Assembly: GCA_001787405.1 (NCBI GenBank)
Contig: MFWV01000003.1
Coordinates: 64,790-128,789, forward strand
Length of the DNA: 64,000 bases
Source: Candidatus Pacebacteria bacterium RIFOXYA1_FULL_38_18
GTDB lineage: Bacteria > Patescibacteriota > Microgenomatia > UBA1400 > PJMF01
Reading direction: 5' to 3'
The notes beneath the pieces are model-generated. The model was given only the letters and a program-made list of their open reading frames with translations. It ran no database searches and was not told the origin of the DNA. The translations under genes were made by a program, and so were the position numbers. Positions 12,356 through 36,389 of the stretch are shown piece by piece. Position 1 is the stretch's first letter, and every line of letters starts with the position of its first letter.

Positions 12356-12430
12356 TCCCCTGTAGCTCAATGGCAGAGCAGGAAGCTGTTAACTTCAAGG
12401 TTGTAGGTTCGAGTCCTACCGGGGGAGCCA
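12356..12430 (+). tRNA. tRNA-Asn (anticodon GTT), CCA encoded
   Basis: Manual cloverleaf: acceptor TCCCCTG/CGGGGGA, D-arm TAGCTCAATGGCAGAGCA, anticodon loop CTGTTAA, T-arm GTAGG-TTCGAGT-CCTAC, discriminator G then CCA. Confidence 0.85.
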
Positions 12431-14005
12431 GATTGGGCGGGAGGGCAACAAAGAGCCCTTTTGTCCCGTAACATCGCTCTTTTCTTGATGTTCGAAACTC
12501 TTACACTCAAATTGGTCAATTTTATCGACTTTCGAACAATTGGTTTCTTTTACTGCCTGAGCCAGAATTTTGAATGCTTTGGTGTAGTCATAGAGGAGTT
12601 TTCCCTCGTCTAATTTCAAGTTGGTGAACACTAGTCGTATAAGGCAGCGCTGTTCTTCGGCTAAGCCTTTCTCTTTTGCAGTTAGGTAGATCTGCTTGGC
12701 TCTCTGGGATAGTTCGTAGAAGTTAATGCCGAAGTTGAAGTAGCCGTTACTAGCTTGGGAGTGCTTCCTGGTGGTTTCTAGGACAGCGTCTTTCTCTCCT
12801 GTATATTGCTTAAACTTCTGATTGTAAAAATCCAGGGTTATTTTCTCGTCCAACTTATCGTCGTAAAGTTTGTCCAAGCGCTTCTTAATTTGCTCGTAGC
12901 GCTGGTTTAGCTCCTCAATCGTAGTGGAGTGGTAGACAGTTTCATCGGCATGGCTTTCTTTAAGCGCTTTTTTGATCCACTCGGCTACTCTCTGGTTTCT
13001 AATGACCAGCTTATCAAAGCCATCAATGATCTGTTCTTCAACCTTTTCTTCTCTGACCCAAGTCTCCTGAGTGCATTCGTGATAGTGGTTGCAGTGTCCG
13101 TAAACCAACCCACCTCGTTGGGATTCCCAGGTAGTTAGCCCGCCACAGGTGGCACAGCGGCATAAACGGTTGAACAGGTAGTCGTGTCTGGTGAGTTTGG
13201 GTGTGGTTTTGCCTGTCAGCATATTTTGCACCTTATCATATAACTCTTGGGTGATAATCGGTTTGTGTTTACCATCGTAGATCTGACCGTTCCACCTCAT
13301 TTTACCAGTGTAGAAGGGCTCTCGTAAGAGTCTGTGAACTCGGCTCTTAACCAGTTTTACGCCGTGGTAGGAGCGCAAACCTTCCTCAAACATGGTCAAT
13401 GTTAATTTTTTGATTGAGTAATTACCCGAAGCGTAAAGCTCGAACATTTTCTTGACCATGACTGCTTTTTCTTCCTCGATAAGGATGATTTTGTGTCCCT
13501 TCTCGCCTACGGTCTTATATCCCACAGGCGGTTTAGTGGGTAGCCACCCTTGCGCTATTTTCTCTTTCTGTCCTTTCTTCACTTCCTCGGAGAGGTTATC
13601 AATGTAGTTTTTTGCAAAAAGGATACGGATGCCCCAGTTCAGTTTCTCTTGAGAACGAGAGTTTTTATGTAAAATCAACGAGTCTTTGACCAGGTGGACT
13701 TGGCGTTCCTCATCATCCTCTAGCCATTCATCAATCATGACAGCATCCTTGAAGCTTCTGGTCAGGCGGTCTACTTTCTCGCAGATAATGATTTTTAGCC
13801 CTTGCTTCTGGACATACTGCATCATCTGGGTGAACACTTCTCGCTGTTTCTTACCACTGGCTGATTCAGAGATGGCGAAGACTTTATCAACACTATAACC
13901 AGTTCTTTCGGAATAGGCGCTTAGAAGCTTCTCCTGGGCTGGTAGGGAGTAGCCTGTTTCCTCTTGTTCTTTGGAGCTGACTCGGCAGTATAGGATGCTT
14001 TTCAT
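12416..14005 (-). CDS. Large serine recombinase (integrase), resolvase/invertase catalytic domain plus recombinase domain plus zinc ribbon
   Basis: N-terminal ILYCRVSSKEQ catalytic-Ser block, recombinase-domain blocks, Cys-rich ribbon (CRCATCGG...HC..H.C) and a coiled-coil tail; its stop codon lies inside the 3' end of tRNA-Asn. Confidence 0.85.
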   Translation of the reverse strand: MKSILYCRVSSKEQEETGYSLPAQEKLLSAYSERTGYSVDKVFAISESASGKKQREVFTQMMQYVQKQGLKIIICEKVDRLTRSFKDAVMIDEWLEDDEERQVHLVKDSLILHKNSRSQEKLNWGIRILFAKNYIDNLSEEVKKGQKEKIAQGWLPTKPPVGYKTVGEKGHKIILIEEEKAVMVKKMFELYASGNYSIKKLTLTMFEEGLRSYHGVKLVKSRVHRLLREPFYTGKMRWNGQIYDGKHKPIITQELYDKVQNMLTGKTTPKLTRHDYLFNRLCRCATCGGLTTWESQRGGLVYGHCNHYHECTQETWVREEKVEEQIIDGFDKLVIRNQRVAEWIKKALKESHADETVYHSTTIEELNQRYEQIKKRLDKLYDDKLDEKITLDFYNQKFKQYTGEKDAVLETTRKHSQASNGYFNFGINFYELSQRAKQIYLTAKEKGLAEEQRCLIRLVFTNLKLDEGKLLYDYTKAFKILAQAVKETNCSKVDKIDQFECKSFEHQEKSDVTGQKGSLLPSRPIWLPR

Positions 14006-18420: not shown

Positions 18421-18699
18421 TAAAAACAGTATGAAAAAACAGTGGATTATAGTCGCCATTCTTCTAGTTATCGTTCTTATTTGGTTTCTGCTTACCGTCG
18501 ACTGTGTGGTCAATAGAACTAACTCTGGTATCCCTATCGACTGGGCTAATATCAAGGATTGTAGCTACTAACTTAAAACTTCCTCAACACATCCCCGACG
18601 AGGCTTCTGAAGCTAAATAGAGGTGGAACTATGCCATCCCAGGCATGAAAGCCTCACACAAGTCAACACACGGGGACACGAGCGTTTCCTTTCTTTCTA

Positions 18700-21600
18700 T
18701 CAAGGGGTTGTTTGCATTTGGATTTCTTTTTCTGGAGCAATTGTCCTTTTTAGATACTTTTGATCTCTTTTTTGAAAAGCGGGAAGCGTTCCCTCAAGAA
18801 CATCTAGTATTTTTTTGTTCGTAGCAGGGTTTTCTATGCTACCAGAGGTGTATCTGATTTCATAAGTGTGCTTGTCCATCTCAGAGCTAATTATTTGTTC
18901 GGCGTCGCAGACAACGGCAAGATTAGGGTTATGGGTTACTATGATGATCTGTCGTTCTTTTTTGGCTTGTTTTATGTAAGGGACTAGGAGGGTATAGACA
19001 GATTCGTTATCAAGATTTTCCTCTGGTTGGTCAATTATGAGAGGAACCTTATCCTTGTCTATCAATAAGTAAAAAATTAACAGTAATGCTCCTATCTCCC
19101 CAGGAGAAAATTCATTCTCATTTAGATCTTTACCATTGAAAGTAATGTTGTATTTAACTTCAAGGTATTTTAATCCGTAGAGGTAGTTATAAAGTTCTAA
19201 TTTTTTACCATCACTTTTTATTAGCTGATCATCCAGCAGCTTGATAGGATTTCCCTTTACTGATTTATCGACTCTGAGACATTCAATGAGCTCTTTGATA
19301 AAGTTTACAACGCCATCTTTTGTTTTCAGGTCGCTATTTGCGATAGTTTCTTTTACTCTGATTAACGCCTCGGCTTTTCCTTGAAAACTGCCGTCTCTGC
19401 TTTGATCAATAAAGGATAAAAAGTCTATGGGAAAATTAAGTTTGTCAAAAACTATCCCGACATCAAAATTAAGCACACTACCTGTTTTCCTCTGTTTTTC
19501 CTCTTTATCGCTTATGACCTTGGCAAGAGGGGCGTAGATTTCTTCATAGAAGGAAATCTTTTTTAGAAGTTCATCATAAATTTGCTCAACGGTTTGATCT
19601 CTCAGTTTCTCTGACGTTTCAATATCTTTATCTAATTTCTTCTGAACATACTCTATTTCACCAGTTAGGGACTTTATTGTCGTTAGACTAGTGTCATCAT
19701 CTACACCTTCAATCAATCCTCGTTTTGTTTGATATGTCTTCAACGCTTTTTGATATTCTCGAAAGGCGTTGTTTTCTTTGTCAAGGCTATCAACGATTGT
19801 TTTTAGATCTGCCTGTATGCCTTTTTTCTTTACGACTAGGCTTGTTTTTGCGTCTCCCTCTTCTGATAATAAAATAGTTAGGCTGTCTTTTTCCAGGTTT
19901 AGGGAAGTCTTCTTCTGTGTGATAAGAGCCTCGTCTATTTTGATGGTAATAAGCTTTTGTGGATCAATACCCAAGAAGGTTAGGTCTTCTTTATAACCAG
20001 AAAGAAAATCATCAAATTGCTTTTGTAGACTGCCTAGGGCAATTTCGAGATTTTGGACCTTTGTAATGTTTTGGTTAACACCCTTTAATACCAACTGCTT
20101 TTCCCCGATGAGCTTTTCAACCTCTTCAAAGGATTTATTAAGAGCTGAGATTTTATCTTCTACATCTTTTGAGGGCTTGCTTTTAGGTTCTGTAACTTTC
20201 TTTGGTTTGACTAAATTCTTTAGCTCCCGTTGTTTTTCCTCTAACTTACGCTTGAGCGATCCAAGATAGATAGGGAGTTTTTTATTTTCTAGTTTACATA
20301 TGGAACCGTTTTGTTCCGACACTTTCTGTTTCAAGGTTTCAACATTTCTATCAATTAGACCTGTTTTTAGCCTAATTAGGTCTTTTAAATTACTAGTGCT
20401 ATTTCGATTTTCCTCGGGAACATATGAGAAGATTACTTTGTCAATTTCCTGCTGAAAAAGCTGATTAACACCACTGCCATCGCAGATCGCCTCAACGAAC
20501 TTTTGAGGGAGATACTTCACCTGCTCGGGTTCTGTGAGATTCACTTGATCATCAAGATTTGACTTTACGGAGATCCCATCCTCCCAAGTGAGTATTGCTT
20601 CATATTGTTTTGCCAGACCTTTTTTCCTGAATTTATCATCTCTCAAAAAAGAGTAAGTATTTGAGTCAGCATGGCTTTTTCCTGCCAATGCCATAGAATC
20701 TGCTTGTGCGCTTTTACCGCTCCCTTTCTTGCCAATAATTGCCACTAAACCAGGATTGATAGGAATTTCGTTATCAAACCAAGGATTCTTTTGAGTGCTG
20801 TCTACTGGTTTCAAAGATATAGCGTTAATGTAATGAGACTTATTACTTTCGATGTCGAGTAACTTGGGTGGCATTTTACCAATGAAGATTCTATCTTCTG
20901 GTTCATTTACAACTTGTCTTAATCCCTCAAAAGTTGGGTCAGCTTTTATCCAGCAGCATCTTTCGCATGGTTGTGACTTTTCATCTCGGATTGCCCCAAT
21001 TGGATATGTGTGTTCATGAGAGTCGCTACCTTTAAGGCATGGCTTTTTGTCTTTGAACCACTCTTCAAATTTTTCCTCTTTAACCTTGTCATCTTTCCAA
21101 AGGAAGAAATCTATTTGTTTTTGATTCGATGACCCGATAAAGTGCGAATCGTTTATAAGTCCTTGCTTGAACCATTGATCATTTACTGGATCGATATTGT
21201 CAATACCGCCATACTCGTCATATGGCATCCAAATCAGGTATTTCCCTCTGAAGGTTGGGTTTGCCTCAAGTAACTCCTTTGTTCTACCAAAATCAACAGC
21301 TACATTCTCGTATAAAAACTTGCTGTCAGAATATTTACTGGAGATTTGACTTCCATTAACGATAAGTGATTTTAGGAAATTCTCTATATCTAAGATATCT
21401 ATTTCATTGCTAAAAACGATATGAAAATTTATTCGCTGACCATTTTTAGAGTTTTTGTTGAGTAGGGCGTTGGTCATCCTAAATTCAACCACTGGCAGAA
21501 CAACTTTGTTTGAGTTGGGTGCTTTGGTTGTAAACTGCTTATAGCCCTCTACAGAACAGTAATCATTGATACCCACAACATCACAATCAGATTTTTCAAT

Positions 21601-21711
21601 TTGATCAACAAATTGGTCATATGTGCCCTTGTAACTAAACGATGCAGGGCTGTGGACATGCAAGTCCCACTTGCGCCATATTGAACCTTTTGGGTCATTC
21701 GTAATTTTCAT
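18700..21711 (-). CDS. Fusion protein: N-terminal PHP-family phosphoesterase domain plus coiled-coil ABC/SMC-type (AAA_15/AAA_21-like) ATPase
   Basis: PHP motifs WDLHVHSP (aa 15-21) and GSDSHEH (aa 228-234); Walker A IIGKKGSGKS (aa 325-334, coordinates about 20710-20740); long K/E/L-rich coiled-coil; C-terminal ABC signature-like FSPGE, Walker B/D-loop LIIDQPEENLD (about 19009-19038) and H-loop IIIVTHNPNL. Confidence 0.7.
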   Translation of the reverse strand: MKITNDPKGSIWRKWDLHVHSPASFSYKGTYDQFVDQIEKSDCDVVGINDYCSVEGYKQFTTKAPNSNKVVLPVVEFRMTNALLNKNSKNGQRINFHIVFSNEIDILDIENFLKSLIVNGSQISSKYSDSKFLYENVAVDFGRTKELLEANPTFRGKYLIWMPYDEYGGIDNIDPVNDQWFKQGLINDSHFIGSSNQKQIDFFLWKDDKVKEEKFEEWFKDKKPCLKGSDSHEHTYPIGAIRDEKSQPCERCCWIKADPTFEGLRQVVNEPEDRIFIGKMPPKLLDIESNKSHYINAISLKPVDSTQKNPWFDNEIPINPGLVAIIGKKGSGKSAQADSMALAGKSHADSNTYSFLRDDKFRKKGLAKQYEAILTWEDGISVKSNLDDQVNLTEPEQVKYLPQKFVEAICDGSGVNQLFQQEIDKVIFSYVPEENRNSTSNLKDLIRLKTGLIDRNVETLKQKVSEQNGSICKLENKKLPIYLGSLKRKLEEKQRELKNLVKPKKVTEPKSKPSKDVEDKISALNKSFEEVEKLIGEKQLVLKGVNQNITKVQNLEIALGSLQKQFDDFLSGYKEDLTFLGIDPQKLITIKIDEALITQKKTSLNLEKDSLTILLSEEGDAKTSLVVKKKGIQADLKTIVDSLDKENNAFREYQKALKTYQTKRGLIEGVDDDTSLTTIKSLTGEIEYVQKKLDKDIETSEKLRDQTVEQIYDELLKKISFYEEIYAPLAKVISDKEEKQRKTGSVLNFDVGIVFDKLNFPIDFLSFIDQSRDGSFQGKAEALIRVKETIANSDLKTKDGVVNFIKELIECLRVDKSVKGNPIKLLDDQLIKSDGKKLELYNYLYGLKYLEVKYNITFNGKDLNENEFSPGEIGALLLIFYLLIDKDKVPLIIDQPEENLDNESVYTLLVPYIKQAKKERQIIIVTHNPNLAVVCDAEQIISSEMDKHTYEIRYTSGSIENPATNKKILDVLEGTLPAFQKRDQKYLKRTIAPEKEIQMQTTP

Positions 21712-21781
21712 AGTTATTGTTATTTATAAATACTGCCCTCACTTAAGGGCAGTATGGCAGAAGTTAGTCTCGAACTGCTCC

Positions 21782-24094
21782 TTATTCATCAATTTTATAA
21801 GCACTACTGATGATAGCGTCGAAACTGTTAATTCTGCTTATTGCGGTATGGGGTAGGATTTTATAGATCCACTTCTTTTTAGTTGCTCCAGAAGCAATCT
21901 TGCACCATTCTTCAGCTTGCTTGGCTTTCTCAATTACCTCTGGGTCTTTTTTGTCTAACTTGCTCTTGTCTTTTACCTCCACTAGATAATTGGCATCATC
22001 TCTTTCAACGATGAAGTCAGGGTTATAGTTGCCGTAAATATATCTAATTGGCAACTGACCAGTTCGAAGTCTTACCCAACTAATTACTGTTTTGTCTTTT
22101 TCTAAAGAGTCGGCAAGTAGCTTCTCCTGGGTTGAATCAAAAACATAAGAATTGTAGACACTCTTGTCATAGCCATCAATAATGTTTCCTCTGGCTTCTG
22201 CTTCGCTCACCTCGTCTTTATCCAATGGAACAGCGGAAGCTTTTACTACTTTCAGATAAGGTTCAAATGAAAGCTCCTCGTCAAGCACGCCAAACTTAAT
22301 CGTTGTCTGTTCTTGGAGTCGCTCCTGCAATTGAGGTAAGATATCATTCAGGATTGTCTGTTCGTGAAGCTTTACCAACTTCGACAATTCTTTATCAGTA
22401 ACCTGAAGCTGGTCAAGATAGTGCTTTACAATCTTTTGTAAAACTGCCTTGAAAGAGATGTCAAACTCGGACATTTCCATAATAATCAACCTTACGATTC
22501 GGTTGACTGGATCAATCTCTTCTTTTACTACAACCTCTCCTGCATCCTCAGTTTGTCTAGAAACAATATCGGCTTTGATTAATCTTGGCTTTATCTTCTT
22601 TAACTCCTCTAAACGCAACTTAATTGGGAAGAATTCCAATTTATTACTCGAATAAACTTTTGCTTCAACTAAAGGAACTTTAACCCAAAGTTTCTTATTA
22701 TCTGTTGGTTTAATTTCAACAGTTTTAAGTTCTTCTTTCTTCTCAGCTTTTTTAACTCCAAGCCCTTCTGCCACTTCATGGGCTACTGCCACCACTCTAG
22801 CAAAGTTATCGTGCGAGATAATGTCGAGAGAGTCCAGCTCCTCAACCCCTGTCAGTTCGCCAAATGGCAAACGCAAACCTCTCCCGATAGTTTGCTCAAT
22901 CAGAGTCTTACTGATTGAAGCCCTGAAGGGAATGATCGTATAAACATTTTTAACATCCCAACCCTCTTTTAATTTATCGACATGGATAACGATTTCATTT
23001 TTATTAACGGGATATGGTTCCTCTAGGCGGAGGAGTTGATGGATAGAATCAACCTCGCTTTCACTGGTTACCAATAGGGTTTTATCTTTGTAATAGCCAT
23101 CAAAGAAACTATCACTTTCAATAAGTGCTTTGACATCCTTAGCGTGCTGGATATTCTTTGTTGTTAAGAGGGTAATTGGTAAAACAAACGGTAATTTATT
23201 GTTTTTGCAGTATTCCTCAATAAGCACCTTTTTCTCTCGGTGTCTTCTGATCCCATCCTCAAGTTTTACCAGTTCTAGGTCACCTTTGTAGGTGTAGTCG
23301 TCACTTCTGGCAATAACATAGGGAATCTTGATGTAACCACCCTTGGCGCCATTACCAGCCACCAAGCTCTCCAAAGCCCGCTTAGAATCGTTTATGGCGT
23401 CTCCTAGGGTGTAGGAATAGACAATGTTGTCACTTATTGGGGTAGCTGTGAACTCCAGTCCCAATTCTGGTTTGAGATGGTTAATAGCCCTAATCGACTT
23501 AACTCCTCGATATCGATGACTTTCGTCCATTAAGATAACCAGATCCTTTTGTTGCAGAAGTTCTGCAAAGCTCGATCCTAATGTCTCTTGATAACGATGG
23601 AACTTAAATTCAACATCGGTTCTCTCGTTAAAGATCTTCTGGATGTTGAAAACATAAATGTTGACTGCCTCAAAAAGTTGATTACCGAAGTTAGCGTAAC
23701 TATAGTTTTCTCCAGTAATCAGGTTAAACAAGGGGAAATCAGTTAATCCATCTAGGACATACTTTTTACTCGAAGGAGTAAAGTTATCGATTGTTTTGGT
23801 ATAAATCGTTTCTCCTGGAGTCAGGATGAAAAAGTCCTTTAGCCCTTTGGTGTAATAGAGGTATGCGATCATACCCGCCATCAGTCTGGTCTTACCAACG
23901 CCTGTAGCCAGGGCAAAAGTAAAGGAGGGGAAGTCAGTGTCAAACTTTACATTACCAACCAATCTCGCTTCAATGTCCTCTAATTTATCTCTACCCAACT
24001 TAACCCCTGAAAGGATGGCATCCAATTTAACGAGTGAAAGCTGTTGTGGCTTTCTTAAGCTTAGTTCTTTTGTGATTTTATCTATTGTGTTCAT
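21782..24094 (-). CDS. res: Type III restriction enzyme, Res subunit (SF2 helicase plus PD-(D/E)xK nuclease)
   Basis: Walker A ATGVGKTRLMAG, DEAH-like ILMDESHRY, motif VI QTIGRGLRL, C-terminal PDFIVER...LVEVKDK nuclease motif; 4-nt overlap with Mod. Confidence 0.8.
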   Translation of the reverse strand: MNTIDKITKELSLRKPQQLSLVKLDAILSGVKLGRDKLEDIEARLVGNVKFDTDFPSFTFALATGVGKTRLMAGMIAYLYYTKGLKDFFILTPGETIYTKTIDNFTPSSKKYVLDGLTDFPLFNLITGENYSYANFGNQLFEAVNIYVFNIQKIFNERTDVEFKFHRYQETLGSSFAELLQQKDLVILMDESHRYRGVKSIRAINHLKPELGLEFTATPISDNIVYSYTLGDAINDSKRALESLVAGNGAKGGYIKIPYVIARSDDYTYKGDLELVKLEDGIRRHREKKVLIEEYCKNNKLPFVLPITLLTTKNIQHAKDVKALIESDSFFDGYYKDKTLLVTSESEVDSIHQLLRLEEPYPVNKNEIVIHVDKLKEGWDVKNVYTIIPFRASISKTLIEQTIGRGLRLPFGELTGVEELDSLDIISHDNFARVVAVAHEVAEGLGVKKAEKKEELKTVEIKPTDNKKLWVKVPLVEAKVYSSNKLEFFPIKLRLEELKKIKPRLIKADIVSRQTEDAGEVVVKEEIDPVNRIVRLIIMEMSEFDISFKAVLQKIVKHYLDQLQVTDKELSKLVKLHEQTILNDILPQLQERLQEQTTIKFGVLDEELSFEPYLKVVKASAVPLDKDEVSEAEARGNIIDGYDKSVYNSYVFDSTQEKLLADSLEKDKTVISWVRLRTGQLPIRYIYGNYNPDFIVERDDANYLVEVKDKSKLDKKDPEVIEKAKQAEEWCKIASGATKKKWIYKILPHTAISRINSFDAIISSAYKIDE

Positions 24095-25647
24095 ACTTTG
24101 AATTTCCTTAATAAAACATCGGGAATTTTTCTAACTTCGACATTATCAGGTAATTTTATTTTACTTGATATGGTCTTAGCATAGATAATAAGAAAATCGG
24201 CTGCATCGCCAATTTCCCGAAGGACTGCCTCTACATACTCCTGATTAAGATACTGCTCGGTGACATGAGCGATAGTTCTGCCTGAGATACCGTGGAGACC
24301 ATTGTCTGGGTGAAGAAGTCTAAATCCTTCTACCTTTAGGACTGCTCGAATAAGCGCACCGTTATAAACCTTTGGGTTGAGCACTGTTAACCTTAAATCG
24401 TCATCTTCTACAAATAAGCTATCTCCAAGCTCAAAATACTTAAATCCACCTCCACCACTCCAATCATATAATCTACTTATTCCTTCTTGGTCTTTGCCTG
24501 ATACCGCTACCTTTAGTCTTGGTATTATGTGGGTTTTAGCATGGTTACCCAATTCCACCATAATCCATTTACGATTTCGCTTATGAGCCACGGCACCTGT
24601 TGTGCCTGACCCTGCAAAAGAGTCTAAAACCCAATCACCCTCTTTAGAGGCTAGATCGATAATCCTATTAATAAGTCTTTCTGGTTTTGGAGTTGTAAAT
24701 TCGTCTTCCATATTAAAAGCCCTTATTTCTCTTTTAGCCTCCTGATTGTCTCCAACCTCTGTTCTAAACCATATCGTTTTTGCTACAGATCCTTGTTTGA
24801 CCTCAGTAAGAAAAATCTTTAAGGATGGTTTGTTCTCACCCTTTTTCCCAAACCAGATTCGATTATCTTTAATCATCTCGTTCAGTTTTTCTTTTCCATA
24901 AACCCAATGTCTGTTATTGCTTGGTAGAAACTTTTTGCCTGCAGGACTTGTGATTTCATACTGTCCGTAGGGGAAGGGGTCTTTTGCAGTCAAATCTGCA
25001 TTTTTCCAAACACCTCTTGGATCATTATCTGGATTTTTATATCGGGCGTTCATTTCTTCTGTTCTTGACAATAGGTTAGGTCTCCAGATGTCTTTATTTT
25101 TGGCGTAAGCAAGAATATGATCGTGACTATCTGATAGCCATTTTGCATCGTTTTGTGGCGAGTATTTTTTCTCCCAAATTACATTTGAAATAAAGTTTTT
25201 TCTACCAAAGACTTCATCACATAAAACTTTCAAGTAATGACACTCATCATCGTCAATTGAAATCCAAATACTCCCATCTTTGCTTAGTAGTTTGTAGAGC
25301 GCTTCTAGTCTCGTTTTCATCAATCCTAGCCAAAGAGAATGCTCCATGCCGTCATCGTAATGCGAGAAAGCATTACCAGTGTTATAGGGAGGATCAATAT
25401 AAATCAGTTTTATTTTGTTTCTAAAATCTTGAAGAAGCGATTGAAGGGCAAGCAGATTATCACCCTTGATAAGCATATTCTCTGTATCTTTGTCCCCAAA
25501 AGTCTCTTTCTGGAGTGAAATTCTCGGCTCTGTTACTCTGGGGTCTTTCTTATCCACCCATTCATAATTACCCGTATCGACATCGTAATAAAGGCTCTTA
25601 CTCTTATTTGCCCAGTTTAATTCTAATTTATTGTCATTTTTAGTCAT
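24091..25647 (-). CDS. mod: Type III restriction-modification DNA methyltransferase, Mod subunit (N6-adenine/N4-cytosine, beta class)
   Basis: Motif IV IYIDPPYN precedes motif I FAGSGTTG (beta-class order); lies directly upstream of and overlapping Res. Confidence 0.8.
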   Translation of the reverse strand: MTKNDNKLELNWANKSKSLYYDVDTGNYEWVDKKDPRVTEPRISLQKETFGDKDTENMLIKGDNLLALQSLLQDFRNKIKLIYIDPPYNTGNAFSHYDDGMEHSLWLGLMKTRLEALYKLLSKDGSIWISIDDDECHYLKVLCDEVFGRKNFISNVIWEKKYSPQNDAKWLSDSHDHILAYAKNKDIWRPNLLSRTEEMNARYKNPDNDPRGVWKNADLTAKDPFPYGQYEITSPAGKKFLPSNNRHWVYGKEKLNEMIKDNRIWFGKKGENKPSLKIFLTEVKQGSVAKTIWFRTEVGDNQEAKREIRAFNMEDEFTTPKPERLINRIIDLASKEGDWVLDSFAGSGTTGAVAHKRNRKWIMVELGNHAKTHIIPRLKVAVSGKDQEGISRLYDWSGGGGFKYFELGDSLFVEDDDLRLTVLNPKVYNGALIRAVLKVEGFRLLHPDNGLHGISGRTIAHVTEQYLNQEYVEAVLREIGDAADFLIIYAKTISSKIKLPDNVEVRKIPDVLLRKFKV

Positions 25648-25843: not shown

Positions 25844-27652
25844 TTAGTGTTGGCTATTCAGCCTATTTGCAAGCATCTCTTGCTCATCATATAACGGCTT
25901 ATCTTGATCAATCATCCTCTGTTCAGCGGCACTTAACCATTGGTTAGACTCCATTTTAGACGCAATAGCTGAAATGTTAGCAATTCTTATTGAAATTATC
26001 TCGTTGATTCTATCGACATCGCCTTTGTTCTTCTGGTAAAAGTTAGCGTTATTTTTAAGATCCGCCCAACTTGGTTGAATTTCTCTTAGCTTTGATAGGC
26101 TGGTTTTCCAAGACTCTGTATCCTCTTTCTTGTAGTTAGGGGGGATGTAGCCAGCTGCATGAACAACAATAAGCTGTGTGGGGCATCCATTCAAACTTCC
26201 TTGGACTTCTCCAATACCAATATCATCAAACTTTTTATCAGACCATGTATTTTTAGCATCTGTAGAATCTCTTTCGAGATAGTCCTCAATCAACTCATCA
26301 GCGGTGTAGTAACCTTCTAGCGACCATTCCCAAACATAACTATTCCAATAACCAGCCTTTGACATTGCGCTTGAAACTACATCAAAAGAAGCCTCTTGTT
26401 GAATAGTATTGTTCTTTAAAAGATATTCGCCTCGTATTTTGGCTGATACATCAAGTTTCGGTTCGTATTTTACTGGTGTTGCTCCATTTTCCTTGCGTTT
26501 TTCATTAAGCAATTCAACAAACCTATTTCTGTCAATTATTGGCTTTACTGTATCTGACAAGTCATTCGTTGCATCATGCCAATTTTTATCAAGTTTGCCC
26601 TTCTGTTTTTCCAGGGGTAAAACAAGACGGATATCTTTAATGGAAGCAAAACCGATCTCTCTTGAATCGGAACTGCCTTTTCTATTGTCTCCCATAGCAA
26701 AGACCGCATCTTGTGGAACCGTAATCACCTGGCACTCTTTAAGAAACTTCTCGCCGAATGTCGAGCGTGGTTTGGCAATATAAGGTTCTTTTTGTGGTTC
26801 TCCATTGAGATAGACAATACCATCCCTAAGTTCTATTGTGTCTCCTGGTAAGCCAATAATTCTTTTTAATAAACCTGCAGGATTACCACCATCTCTGCTC
26901 GTTAGCTCTCTTGTAGTATCATTTTCCCAGGTAAGAATGTCGCCTCTACCTAGTGTGTGTCCTAAAAATCTTCTTCCATTTATCACAATTCCGTTTGGGT
27001 AAGGTAAAAAGCCCGCCGTTGATATAATCTCTTTTGCCAATTCCTTGTTGCTTTTGCCTTTTGTGCCTTTCTCCCAAGTCGGATACATTGAGCCTGTCCC
27101 CACAATATTTATGTCTTCAGTGATATACCCCAGCTGACTAGCAGCTAAAGCTCCAACCGTTACATATCCACCAATCCAAATAGGCAAGATAATAACTCCA
27201 ACCGCTATAAGCGTAGTGACCCTGACTAATATTGGTTTGAGACGAAATGATTTAAATAAGCTCTTGATGCCGTCATGTTTTAGTCTTTTGACAAACTCAA
27301 GTGGTTTGAGGATATAAATAAACAAATACAAGGGCAGGATAGCGAGGATGAAGAACAGTTTAATGAGAAAAATAAAGATATTTTGTCTCTTATGAGACCT
27401 CTTAGCTATTAGTTGTGCTGTAAAGCTAGTTATTCCAATCAAGAAAGCGAAACTTCCTAGAAGGACGAGACCAAGAAGCGAGAAAGCAAAAACATCGGGT
27501 GCTTTGTCGAACATCTCTTTTCTTATGCCAACGACATACCCCATGATGGAGAAGACGCCAACAATACATCCTACCCAGACTATGGCTGATACTTTAATAA
27601 TCCAGTTAAGGACTTTTTCTTTGTTTAGTTTTAACGACATTTTTCTCCGCAT
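25844..27652 (-). CDS. Signal peptidase I (S26)-like protein fused to an N-terminal polytopic membrane domain and a C-terminal extra domain
   Basis: About 6 N-terminal TM helices; S26 boxes GTGSMYPT (Ser nucleophile), LPGDTIELRDGIVYLNGEP and GDNRKGSSDSR; C-terminal 270 aa of unknown function. Confidence 0.65.
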   Translation of the reverse strand: MRRKMSLKLNKEKVLNWIIKVSAIVWVGCIVGVFSIMGYVVGIRKEMFDKAPDVFAFSLLGLVLLGSFAFLIGITSFTAQLIAKRSHKRQNIFIFLIKLFFILAILPLYLFIYILKPLEFVKRLKHDGIKSLFKSFRLKPILVRVTTLIAVGVIILPIWIGGYVTVGALAASQLGYITEDINIVGTGSMYPTWEKGTKGKSNKELAKEIISTAGFLPYPNGIVINGRRFLGHTLGRGDILTWENDTTRELTSRDGGNPAGLLKRIIGLPGDTIELRDGIVYLNGEPQKEPYIAKPRSTFGEKFLKECQVITVPQDAVFAMGDNRKGSSDSREIGFASIKDIRLVLPLEKQKGKLDKNWHDATNDLSDTVKPIIDRNRFVELLNEKRKENGATPVKYEPKLDVSAKIRGEYLLKNNTIQQEASFDVVSSAMSKAGYWNSYVWEWSLEGYYTADELIEDYLERDSTDAKNTWSDKKFDDIGIGEVQGSLNGCPTQLIVVHAAGYIPPNYKKEDTESWKTSLSKLREIQPSWADLKNNANFYQKNKGDVDRINEIISIRIANISAIASKMESNQWLSAAEQRMIDQDKPLYDEQEMLANRLNSQH

Positions 27653-34245: not shown

Positions 34246-34507
34246 TTGGAGAAGTAATTTCAGTTTCTCAATTCAAGACCACAATGGTTGCATATATCTC
34301 ATGATTGACAAGTACTACAACTAGTTGCTATATTTGTAGTATGACAACTAAGAAAAAGCAACGCGCTACTATTTTTTTGAATCCAGCTGTCTATAAACAC
34401 TCCCGGGCACAAGCGATAGTCGAGGAATTAACTTTGACTCAACTTGTAGAAAAAGCTCTAGTTTGCTATTTACCAAAAGAAACAATTATCAAGAAAGTGA
34501 GGGAAAT

Positions 34508-34885
34508 ATGAGTGAATCACAAGTTAAAACGGGGTCTCCTCAAAAAGATTACCAAGCGAAAAAAGCAATTTTTCGCACCTATCAGATTATTTGGTACATC
34601 CTCGGTCTAATCGAAGTGGTATTGGGCTTTAGAGTGCTATTCAAACTCCTTGGAGCCAATGCTTCCAGCGGATTTACCAATTTTATCTATGCAATTAGCT
34701 ATCCCTTTGCCCAGCCATTTGCGGGCATATTGGGTACAACCAAAAGCTCAGGCATTGTCCTGGAATGGTCAACTCTAATTGCCATGATAGTTTATGTGGT
34801 TGTCGCCTATGGAATCGTAGCCTTCTTTCAGCTGGTGAAGCCGACTGATCAAGAAGAGGTAGAACAAACAGTTGATAGTCAATAG
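34508..34885 (+). CDS. YggT family membrane protein
   Basis: Two TM segments with the YGGT-like pattern; start refined to ATG 34508 (GAGGG RBS). Confidence 0.5.
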   Translation: MSESQVKTGSPQKDYQAKKAIFRTYQIIWYILGLIEVVLGFRVLFKLLGANASSGFTNFIYAISYPFAQPFAGILGTTKSSGIVLEWSTLIAMIVYVVVAYGIVAFFQLVKPTDQEEVEQTVDSQ

Positions 34886-34914
34886 ATTATTAATAATTAA
34901 AGGGAGGTGAAAAT

Positions 34915-35058
34915 ATGAGTATTTCATTAACAGCATTAAGTCCAATTACGGCTTTGCTTTTTGGCATCTTAATTTTGATGTTTCCCAAATTTTTGAACTA
35001 TTTGATTGCGGGATATCTGATTCTTATCGGTTTGATTGGCTTGGGTGTATTTATATAA
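34915..35058 (+). CDS. Small membrane protein (47 aa), DUF3096-like
   Basis: Not in the ORF track (shorter than 60 aa); strong RBS AGGGAGGTGA 7 nt upstream; two hydrophobic helices. Confidence 0.45.
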   Translation: MSISLTALSPITALLFGILILMFPKFLNYLIAGYLILIGLIGLGVFI

Positions 35059-35076
35059 AAAGTAAAGAAGGAACAT

Positions 35077-35325
35077 ATGGGTATTATTCTATGGATTATT
35101 TTAGGTGGCATTGCTGGTTGGATTGCTTCTATGGTGATGGAGACTAATTCTCAGGGCACGCTCGCCGATATTATCATGGGCATTGTAGGTGCTATGGTGG
35201 GTGGTTTTCTATTGAACCTAATTGGCCAATCAGGAGTGACAGGGTTTAATGTTTATAGCTTATTTGTGGCTGTTATTGGTGCCATAGTTCTTATTTATCT
35301 TGGTCGGATGTTTCGCTCAAGATAA
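35077..35325 (+). CDS. GlsB/YeaQ/YmgE family stress-response membrane protein (transglycosylase-associated)
   Basis: 82 aa; MGIILWIILGGIAGWIAS...GIVGAMVGGFL matches the family pattern. Confidence 0.7.
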   Translation: MGIILWIILGGIAGWIASMVMETNSQGTLADIIMGIVGAMVGGFLLNLIGQSGVTGFNVYSLFVAVIGAIVLIYLGRMFRSR

Positions 35326-35342
35326 AAAATCGAAAGGAAATC

Positions 35343-35687
35343 ATGTTAGCTTTGATATTACTGCTGGTTGTGGGATCTATACTTGCTTATATCTCCAAAT
35401 TTAATATTATGCCGGTCACAGTCAACTTTGGTGTTTATGTTTTGACTGATATTCCACTTTTCTATGTCATCATCGGTTCTGTCATTTTTGGTTTAGTTTT
35501 GTCGTATCTTTTTTATCTTGCCCATGCCATTTCCCACGTTTTCAAACTGCGTGGTAAAGATAAAGAAATCAAGAAAAATAAAAATGAAGTACTTGGATTA
35601 ACTAGACAAGTGCATCAATTGGAGTTGGAAAAAGAAAAACGCAAAAAAAATAATCCGCTGGAGCCAGTCGATAAAAATTCATTATGA
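35343..35687 (+). CDS. LapA-domain-like small membrane protein (DUF1049-like)
   Basis: Two N-terminal TM helices then a K/E-rich tail. Confidence 0.4.
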   Translation: MLALILLLVVGSILAYISKFNIMPVTVNFGVYVLTDIPLFYVIIGSVIFGLVLSYLFYLAHAISHVFKLRGKDKEIKKNKNEVLGLTRQVHQLELEKEKRKKNNPLEPVDKNSL

Positions 35688-36142
35688 AGACGATGTTGGC
35701 AAAGTTATGGAAAGCCTTTCGCTTTCCCAAAAAGTTTCAATTATTTGTGATGCGTTTTTTGCAAGATCAATTCTTGGTGGGCTTAACGGGCATTATTTTC
35801 AATGATAAAAATGAAGTTTTGTTGTTTAAGCATGTTTATCGAGCTCATTCGTGGAGTTTACCAGGCGGTTATATGAAAGCCGGTGAACATCCAAAAGAAG
35901 CGCTGGAAAGAGAAATTAAAGAAGAATCAGGGCTAGTGGTGAGCGTGGACGAACAACTCAAAACACGAACTGACCGAGAAACTGCTCGTTTGGATATTTG
36001 TTATGTCGGTGTTTTTATTGGTGGGGACTTTTCTCCCTCATCTGAAGTTTCTGAATTTGGATTTTTTAGCCTAGATAAACTGCCCTTGATTCGAAAAAAT
36101 CAGTTGTTTTTAATCAATGAGGCCCTAACTCAGAGAACTTAG
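35684..36142 (+). CDS. NUDIX hydrolase
   Basis: Nudix box GGYMKAGEHPKEALEREIKEESGL (Gx5Ex7REUxEExGU). Confidence 0.8.
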   Translation: MKTMLAKLWKAFRFPKKFQLFVMRFLQDQFLVGLTGIIFNDKNEVLLFKHVYRAHSWSLPGGYMKAGEHPKEALEREIKEESGLVVSVDEQLKTRTDRETARLDICYVGVFIGGDFSPSSEVSEFGFFSLDKLPLIRKNQLFLINEALTQRT

Positions 36143-36170
36143 CATCAAAATCAACTTTATAGAATGTTTC

Positions 36171-36389
36171 TCAATTCAAGATCACAATGGCTGCGTTGAG
36201 TGTAGTGGCAAAAGTTACCCACAATAGATAGGGCACTAATAAATAAAAGGCTGCTTTTGATAAAGGATAAAACTTTTTCATGGTCAGCATGATGGACGCC
36301 CACAGTGCCACGATGACGATCAGGCCCAGTAAGGGGGATCGCAGACCAAAAAAGATGGGTGACCAGCTGAAATTGAGCACTAGTTGCAC
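36171..36389 (-). pseudogene. TspO/MBR (tryptophan-rich sensory protein) C-terminal fragment
   Basis: 72-aa ORF whose sequence (NFSWSPIFFGLRSP...LWVTFATTLN) matches the C-terminal half of TspO; about half the normal length. Confidence 0.4.

Follow-up and report, generated by a model that had tools for sequence, protein, structure and literature searches.

Ppl is a described single-gene anti-phage system that combines a PHP domain with an ATPase domain (PMC11482910). A 2026 review presents Ppl as a 3′-5′ exonuclease acting on single-stranded DNA, in which nucleoside triphosphates (NTPs) bound to the PHP domain and to the NTPase domain are both inhibitory (PMC12904381); this inhibition is reportedly relieved by phage-induced NTP depletion together with the presence of 3′-OH ends (PMC12904381; PMC13434339). 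A related family goes under the name TrlF, which was taken from the temperature-restriction operon trlR-trlF-trlG of Photorhabdus laumondii, where TrlF was annotated as a histidinol phosphatase of the PHP type and TrlG is an AlbA_2/HATPase_c_4 protein (PMC7554251); this paper was the only one that a literature search for “TrlF” returned. Here we describe a gene assigned to the TrlF family in a 64,000-nucleotide stretch of the genome of Candidatus Pacebacteria bacterium RIFOXYA1_FULL_38_18 (contig MFWV01000003.1, positions 64,790 to 128,789; this whole stretch is referred to below as the window, and all coordinates are counted from its first letter) and compare its product with these systems.

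The gene is a single open reading frame (ORF) that runs without interruption from an ATG to a stop codon, and the motifs quoted for it in a first-pass annotation of the sequence are all present. The gene and the parts of its product are as follows.

18700..21711, minus strand: trlF-family gene, 1003 amino acids (aa) plus stop (ORF check, NCBIfam, AlphaFold2)
20812..21711, minus strand: N-terminal PHP phosphoesterase domain, aa 1-300 (conserved ligands, Foldseek, match to the Ppl model)
20392..20811, minus strand: N-terminal lobe of the ABC head, aa 301-440 (Walker A at 20710-20739; Q-loop YLPQ at 20503-20514)
19477..20391, minus strand: coiled-coil insert, aa 441-745 (rich in K, L and E; one Cys; helices in the AlphaFold2 model)
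18703..19476, minus strand: C-terminal lobe of the ABC head, aa 746-1003 (SPGE at 19096-19110; LIIDQPEENLD at 19009-19041; H-loop at 18928-18948)

In the protein, the PHP motifs WDLHVHSP and GSDSHEH occupy aa 15-22 and 228-234, the Walker A motif IIGKKGSGKS aa 325-334, and the C-terminal motifs FSPGE, LIIDQPEENLD and IIIVTHN aa 868-872, 891-901 and 922-928, respectively. Conservation was assessed in an alignment of 54 TrlF homologues with 40-88% identity to the window protein. The motif residues are invariant across this alignment; outside the PHP region, the invariant or nearly invariant positions are Walker A G327-x-KGSGKS334, Q403, S869-P-G-E872, D894-Q-P-E897 and H927.

Searches against NCBIfam retrieved model NF045780, “TrlF family AAA-like ATPase”, with a score of 607.7 bits against a cut-off of 350 (E = 6e-182), and the match extended from end to end, with aa 8-986 aligned to model positions 1-943 of 944. 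The full-length profile match and the invariance of the motif residues put the ORF and its motifs far beyond chance. Weaker matches were obtained with the “anti-phage protein Ppl” model (96 bits) and with the Spaf_1101 family. By profile, then, the window protein is a TrlF-family member, and its PHP-ATPase architecture is one that has already been named, not a new one.

To compare the window protein with Ppl directly, we used WP_015059139.1, an 891-aa protein encoded by an E. coli IncF plasmid; the primary study of Ppl is reportedly that of Xu et al. 2026 (Mol Cell 86:180). An hhalign comparison of the TrlF profile with this protein gave a probability of 99.6% (E = 7e-24) over 808 columns, covering Ppl residues 2-888. 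In BLASTP, collinear segments were aligned over HxH and GSDxH...CWxK...GLR...Walker A (E = 1e-11), and the C-terminal lobe (SPG...DQPExxLD...H-loop) was aligned with 30% identity (E = 9e-17). Ppl (PDLC02208) was also the best PADLOC model for the window protein, with 83 bits that came from the C-terminus only. The two proteins share the order of domains and motifs (PHP HxH and GSDxH; Walker A; SPG; DQPE(E/D)xLD; H-loop), a helical insert between the ATPase lobes and carriage by mobile elements, and they differ in length, the window protein exceeding Ppl by ~110 aa and having additional segments in both its coiled coil and its PHP domain. Since the cut-off of the Ppl equivalog model was missed (see below), we assign the window protein to TrlF as a distant paralogue of Ppl that is homologous to it over the whole length.

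Thus, given the NF045780 match and the Ppl homology, the view taken in the first-pass annotation, which recognized in no described system a PHP phosphoesterase joined in cis to an ATPase of this type, did not hold. The architecture is in essence that of a named defence family, because TrlF is a named family and Ppl a described anti-phage PHP-ATPase; and since the architecture has both a family name and a characterized relative, the fusion is an ordinary one, to which the window adds another member. The division of the protein into a PHP N-terminus and a coiled-coil ABC/SMC-type ATPase, proposed in the same annotation, was borne out by the conserved motifs, the AlphaFold2 model, Foldseek and the homology to Ppl.

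The PHP motifs HxH, E, H and DxH are kept among TrlF homologues: in the TrlF alignments, the putative metal ligands H18, H20, D50, E76 and D230 are invariant, and H97 and H232 nearly so. Structural modelling gave the same picture. The AlphaFold2 model, built on the 54-homologue alignment, had a predicted local distance difference test (pLDDT) score of 86.2 and a predicted template modelling (pTM) score of 0.70, and it consisted of an alpha/beta N-terminal domain, the N-lobe of an ABC head, three long helices with a small apex and the ABC C-lobe, in this order. Foldseek searches of the PDB with the N-terminus of the model retrieved the PHP domain of PolC (3f2b, E = 1e-4), the PHP domain of RNase AM (7ug9, target TM-score 0.60) and a TrpH-like protein (3o0f). 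In addition, aa 1-300 alone matched positions 188-247 of the Ppl model collinearly (E = 5e-6). We conclude from the conserved motifs, the Foldseek matches and the homology to the PHP region of Ppl that the N-terminus of the window protein is a PHP phosphoesterase with its ligand motifs intact.

The rest of the window protein forms a Rad50/SMC-like ABC head, with a short coiled coil of ~300 aa inserted between the two lobes. Foldseek comparison of the C-terminal 700 residues with the PDB retrieved the heads of SMC, Rad50, JetC, MukB, LmuB and RecN (best matches 5xei, E = 1e-10, and 7zr1, E = 4e-9), and Pfam gave sub-threshold matches to SMC_N and AAA_21 (the latter with 25.6 bits against a cut-off of 27, and confined to the C-terminal lobe). 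The long helices of the model (aa 441-497, 514-571 and 678-742) fall within a segment, aa 441-745, that consists of 16% K, 13% L and 10% E. In ABC ATPases, the catalytic glutamate normally stands directly after the Walker B Asp. Here it is replaced by Gln (DQPE) in 54 out of 54 aligned TrlF proteins and in Ppl (L091:2871-5543) as well. Because Gln is invariant where the catalytic glutamate normally sits, the sequence suggests either slow hydrolysis or catalysis by the second glutamate of the motif, and a role in nucleotide sensing rather than that of a motor.

We favour, with a probability of roughly 60%, the reading that the TrlF protein of the window is an autonomous, self-contained defence nuclease-ATPase of the Ppl kind that a mobile island carries as cargo. 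If the homology to Ppl is taken as a guide, the PHP domain would act as a 3′-5′ exonuclease on single-stranded DNA or on 3′ overhangs of invading DNA; the ABC head would dimerize and bind both nucleotide and DNA ends, controlling the nuclease in the manner of a sensor or lock and not in that of a fast motor. High cellular NTP would hold the nuclease off, and a fall in NTP during infection, together with free 3′-OH DNA ends, would turn it on. Going one step further, cleavage by the Type III restriction enzyme encoded next to trlF could supply such ends, in which case TrlF would finish off the restriction-cut DNA.

Several observations weigh against this reading. The PHP assignment stays under the Pfam gathering score (15.6 bits, aa 16-68), and a PDB sequence search with aa 1-300 retrieved no match. 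RNA and nucleotides, too, can be substrates of PHP domains, and RNase AM, which acts on RNA, is among the structural matches. Overall identity to Ppl is about 22-24%, and the window protein scores 96 bits where the cut-off of the Ppl equivalog model (NF042955) is 1000; because of this low identity and the missed cut-off, the substrate and the trigger of TrlF may differ from those of Ppl. In the only genetic study available, that of the Photorhabdus TRL operon, all temperature-tolerant mutations fell in trlG, and trlF had none (PMC7554251); our literature search found no published data on anti-phage defence by, or nuclease activity of, any TrlF-family protein.

The similarity of the head to Rad50 raises another reading, in which TrlF would be a housekeeping DNA repair protein, a single-chain analogue of SbcCD/Mre11-Rad50 that processes double-strand breaks or hairpins of the cell's own DNA. 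Among solved structures, the closest relative in sequence is Rad50, and the closest in fold are the heads of SMC, Rad50 and RecN; PDB sequence searches with the window protein, E. coli Ppl, the TrlF profile and the N-terminus alone returned nothing beyond Rad50, SMC and generic ABC heads. Like Rad50-Mre11/SbcCD, the window protein couples an ABC head with a coiled-coil insert to a putative metal-dependent nuclease of a kind that works at DNA ends, and PHP domains are known to proofread in PolX and PolC. However, the nuclease is a PHP domain in cis instead of a separate calcineurin-like subunit, the coiled coil has ~60 residues per arm where those of Rad50 have hundreds, a CxxC zinc hook was sought in aa 441-745 and is absent, with a single Cys in this region, and Gln, not Glu, follows the Walker B Asp. 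No gene for a metallophosphoesterase of the Mre11/SbcD type was found among the scanned window neighbours, between ~12 and 30 kb. The SbcCD-like analogy drawn in the first-pass annotation thus holds only in part. The repair reading is further disfavoured by the patchy spread of the family, by its location on integrated islands and conjugative plasmids and by the lack of a conserved repair-gene neighbourhood at the surveyed loci, and we consider it very improbable.

The hhhD-x-PE-type Walker B motif in the C-terminal ABC lobe, together with weak matches to AAA_21 and AriA, is also reminiscent of the OLD-family and AAA_15/21 defence ATPases (Gabija GajA, PARIS AriA and Septu PtuA), for several of which NTP-sensing regulation has been proposed. 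The effector of the window protein is, in contrast, a PHP domain. A TOPRIM or HNH domain or partner, searched for with Pfam and PADLOC, was absent from both the window protein and its neighbours. Membership in OLD, Gabija or PARIS was rejected, AAA_21 being under its gathering score and TOPRIM without a match.

The TrlF family is large, patchy, accessory and horizontally mobile. We retrieved at least 2710 relatives at E ≤ 1e-5, and 1704 representatives of 50%-identity clusters at E ≤ 1e-30. In a collection of 185,579 species, relatives were found in at least 574 species-level genomes, which belong to most bacterial phyla and include one archaeal metagenome-assembled genome (MAG); the nearest species-level relatives among the matches listed are Omnitrophota and Patescibacteria MAGs. 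The identical protein in the same mod-res-trlF context is present in many metagenome assemblies, including a record named as groundwater and the genome assembly GCA_001788645.1. TrlF- or Ppl-type matches were found on 1147 PLSDB plasmid records, 828 of them predicted to be conjugative and most from Escherichia and Klebsiella, and on a few phage records. At two plasmid loci, L092 (Klebsiella NZ_CP045678.1) and L096 (Rhizobium NZ_CP104146.1), Abi-family genes adjoin the trlF-type gene, and L092 also lies near CcdAB. The plasmid-borne genes of the TrlF/Ppl type may represent an under-studied defence or competition function of plasmids.

In the window, trlF lies downstream of Type III restriction-modification (RM) genes, and a recombinase gene is found on its other side. 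The neighbouring features are as follows.

21712..21781, minus strand: res-trlF spacer, 70 nt, with a hairpin of 11-bp stem followed by an A/U-rich tail
21782..24094, minus strand: Type III Res, 770 aa (Pfam ResIII and RE_endonuc; PADLOC REase_III, E = 9e-86)
24091..25647, minus strand: Type III Mod, 518 aa (Pfam N6_N4_Mtase, E = 7e-49; PADLOC MTase_III, E = 5e-148)
12356-12430, plus strand: tRNA-Asn (ARAGORN)
12416-14005, minus strand: large serine recombinase gene (Pfam Resolvase, Recombinase and Zn_ribbon_recom; weak XisF/Ccr-like NCBIfam matches)

As can be seen, mod and res lie on the minus strand together with trlF, as the first-pass annotation had reported: res is directly upstream of trlF and co-oriented with it, and mod overlaps res by 4 nt. 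The spacer RNA is predicted to fold with -20.7 kcal/mol (z = -3.66), and a simple promoter scan revealed no σ70-like site in the spacer. The hairpin could serve as a weak terminator or as an attenuator and so make trlF partly independent of mod-res, and trlF may be transcribed by read-through from res with some attenuation. At the other end of trlF, a 48-codon ORF (18431-18577, plus strand), shorter than the cut-off of the ORF list, lies 3′ of the gene in convergent orientation and encodes a hydrophobic, membrane-like peptide (MKKQWIIVAILLVIVLIWFLL...).

From left to right, the window contains the housekeeping genes rpoD and mgtE, tRNA-Asn, the serine recombinase gene, helix-turn-helix (HTH) genes, trlF and then res and mod, and the tRNA gene overlaps the 3′ end of the recombinase gene. 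The HTH genes, trlF and the Type III RM genes probably belong to one integrated island, with its left edge at the tRNA-Asn/recombinase pair. To delimit the island, att-type direct repeats of the 3′ end of tRNA-Asn were sought, and none were found; the lack of such a repeat fits a serine recombinase. Just upstream of mod, a gene at 25844-27652 (minus strand) encodes a 602-aa protein with a signal peptidase I (S26) core and a YkwD/CAP-like region; it weakly matches the conjugative signal peptidase TraF and may derive from a conjugative element, either as a remnant or as cargo. Further to the right, a 29-nt direct repeat, GTTTCTCAATTCAAGACCACAATGGTTGC, occurs at 34263-34291 and 36166-36194, with 2 mismatches between copies that are 1903 bp apart, where none was expected by chance; the two copies bracket ORFs at 34463-36142.

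The genomic context of relatives was surveyed at 82 loci, namely the window, the locus of an 88%-identical relative (L001) and 80 species-level loci (locus numbers are given below where they are needed). ORFs in the fetched loci were called by a simple longest-ORF heuristic and grouped into families by all-against-all BLASTP; the neighbour counts that follow are aggregates per Pfam or PADLOC model, from scans that took two genes on each side. No family occurred at more than 5 of the 82 loci within four genes of trlF, and an obligate multi-gene system was for this reason dropped. The neighbourhood of trlF abounds in RM genes of Type I and Type III and in integrase, Fic/SoFic, Abi, YhcG nuclease and nSTAND genes. 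With Pfam, counts downstream and upstream of trlF were 4 and 9 for ResIII, 4 and 3 for HSDR_N, 3 and 5 for Methylase_S, 2 and 5 for N6_N4_Mtase, 2 and 4 for N6_Mtase, and 2 and 2 for TrlG-like HATPase_c_4. PADLOC models gave 5 for MTase_III, 5-6 and 3 for the Type I specificity subunit and 4-5 for Type I REase; further counts were 3 for SoFic, 4 for phage integrase, 2 for nSTAND3 and 2 for the YhcG nuclease. The BLAST neighbour families of HsdM, HsdR, HsdS, TrlG-like, YhcG, integrase and transposase proteins were confirmed on representatives. YhcG/DUF1016 nuclease genes were seen nearby in L042, L033, L048 and L063. Thus, the co-localization with defence genes is real in the window and recurs in distant homologues, in neighbourhoods that are defence-rich and mobile but share no universal partner gene.

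An RM gene lies within two ORFs of trlF at roughly one locus in five, a level that general knowledge, rather than a genome-wide null model, places well above that of a random gene. At 6-7 of the 80 loci other than the window and L001, trlF is flanked by co-oriented Type III mod/res genes; for Type I hsd genes the number is about 7. The order is mod-res-trlF in the window, L007 and L071, res-mod-trlF in L046, L056 and L088, and trlF-mod-(x)-res in L062 and L068. The gene is surrounded by Type I genes, or embedded among them, in L014, L019, L042, L058, L064, L066 and L074: trlF is located between hsdS and hsdR in L058 (hsdS-trlF-hsdR), L042 and L064, whereas in L019 it immediately precedes hsdM-hsdS, and hsdR follows at a greater distance downstream. 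Other close relatives adjoin integrases, accompany a Type IIS system and a LexA-like gene, or stand where a type IV secretion cluster ends. In a quick neighbour-joining tree of TrlF, the RM-adjacent loci are scattered, and the Res proteins encoded beside 75%- and 48%-identical TrlF relatives share with the window Res only the similarity of helicase motifs. Because the loci are scattered on the tree and the Res proteins are unrelated, we conclude that the association of TrlF with RM genes has arisen repeatedly and was not inherited as a block. We also considered TrlF as an extra subunit of Type III RM enzymes and rejected this candidate, since there is no consistent Mod/Res lineage and Type III genes are adjacent at so few loci.

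Insertion inside a Type I operon is an arrangement known for prrC, and TrlF could accordingly be read as a guard of RM, which, like PrrC or PARIS, senses a blocked Type III or Type I enzyme or anti-restriction proteins and unleashes its PHP nuclease in abortive infection. PrrC and RloC, too, combine an NTPase and a nuclease in one chain and are found in or beside Type I RM operons, and RloC has a Rad50-like coiled-coil ATPase as well; unlike the window protein, they lack a PHP domain and act as nucleases on tRNA anticodons, and no homology between them and the window protein was detected. RloC has been reported to respond to DNA double-strand breaks, the gene for PrrC lies within a Type IC locus, and PARIS senses anti-restriction by an ABC ATPase (PMC12707154). 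The guard reading is in line with these precedents, with the weak AriA matches of the C-terminal ATPase lobe and with the co-directional position of trlF inside or beside Type I hsd operons (L058, L042, L064 and L019) and Type III mod/res genes in unrelated lineages. It is at odds with the surveyed loci that have no RM gene within two ORFs, about 80% of the total, with close relatives that stand beside a Type IIS system, beside conjugation genes or alone, and with Ppl, which works as a single gene. Moreover, the Res proteins encoded beside TrlF show no relationship among themselves, which speaks against a specific interface between Res and TrlF. We consider a guard function unlikely.

A broader idea is that TrlF is functionally coupled to ATP-dependent Type III and Type I restriction enzymes, either as a post-restriction exonuclease or as a guard fired by blocked restriction; we put it forward as a possibility, itself doubtful. 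In the post-restriction form, TrlF could load on the 3′-OH ends left by Res or HsdR and destroy the cut DNA, a role that, we speculate, would matter most in lineages without end-degrading enzymes of the RecBCD/AddAB type. In the TrlF tree, co-oriented insertions of trlF into unrelated Type III and Type I operons recur on no fewer than 10 separate branches, an observation that is consistent with such coupling without proving it. No description of a link between TrlF and restriction was found in literature searches on PHP domains, RM and defence islands.

The preferred reading, that of a self-contained Ppl-like nuclease-ATPase, has also to be weighed against the operon from which the family takes its name (PMC7554251). 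If TrlF were half of a two-gene system of the TRL type, with TrlG as the other half, the window protein would be incomplete or would have only a regulatory function. The curated full-length model places Photorhabdus TrlF in one family with the window protein, co-oriented TrlG-like genes stand beside trlF in L034, L045, L068 and L078, and an AlbA_2 gene is present near a 79%-identical relative in L089. These TrlG-like neighbours, however, account for only 4 of the 80 loci, the catalytic motifs of the window protein are all intact, and the Photorhabdus phenotype was mapped to trlG, not to trlF. The trlR-trlF-trlG context is absent from the window, where mod and res are upstream of trlF instead, and no TrlG-like (AlbA_2/HATPase_c_4) gene was found among the scanned window ORFs between 9.5 and 41 kb, of which those with no Pfam or NCBIfam match could still be one. 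We regard a dependence on TrlG as quite unlikely; functions outside the four readings considered here take up the remaining probability.

The TrlF branch far exceeds Ppl in size and also has the wider taxonomic spread. The recurrent embedding of trlF in Type I and Type III operons provides a testable lead on how restriction enzymes cooperate with end-processing nucleases. If TrlF were shown to work like Ppl, thousands of genes now listed as “hypothetical” or “ABC-type ATPase”, many of them on conjugative plasmids of enterobacteria, would thereby be annotated.

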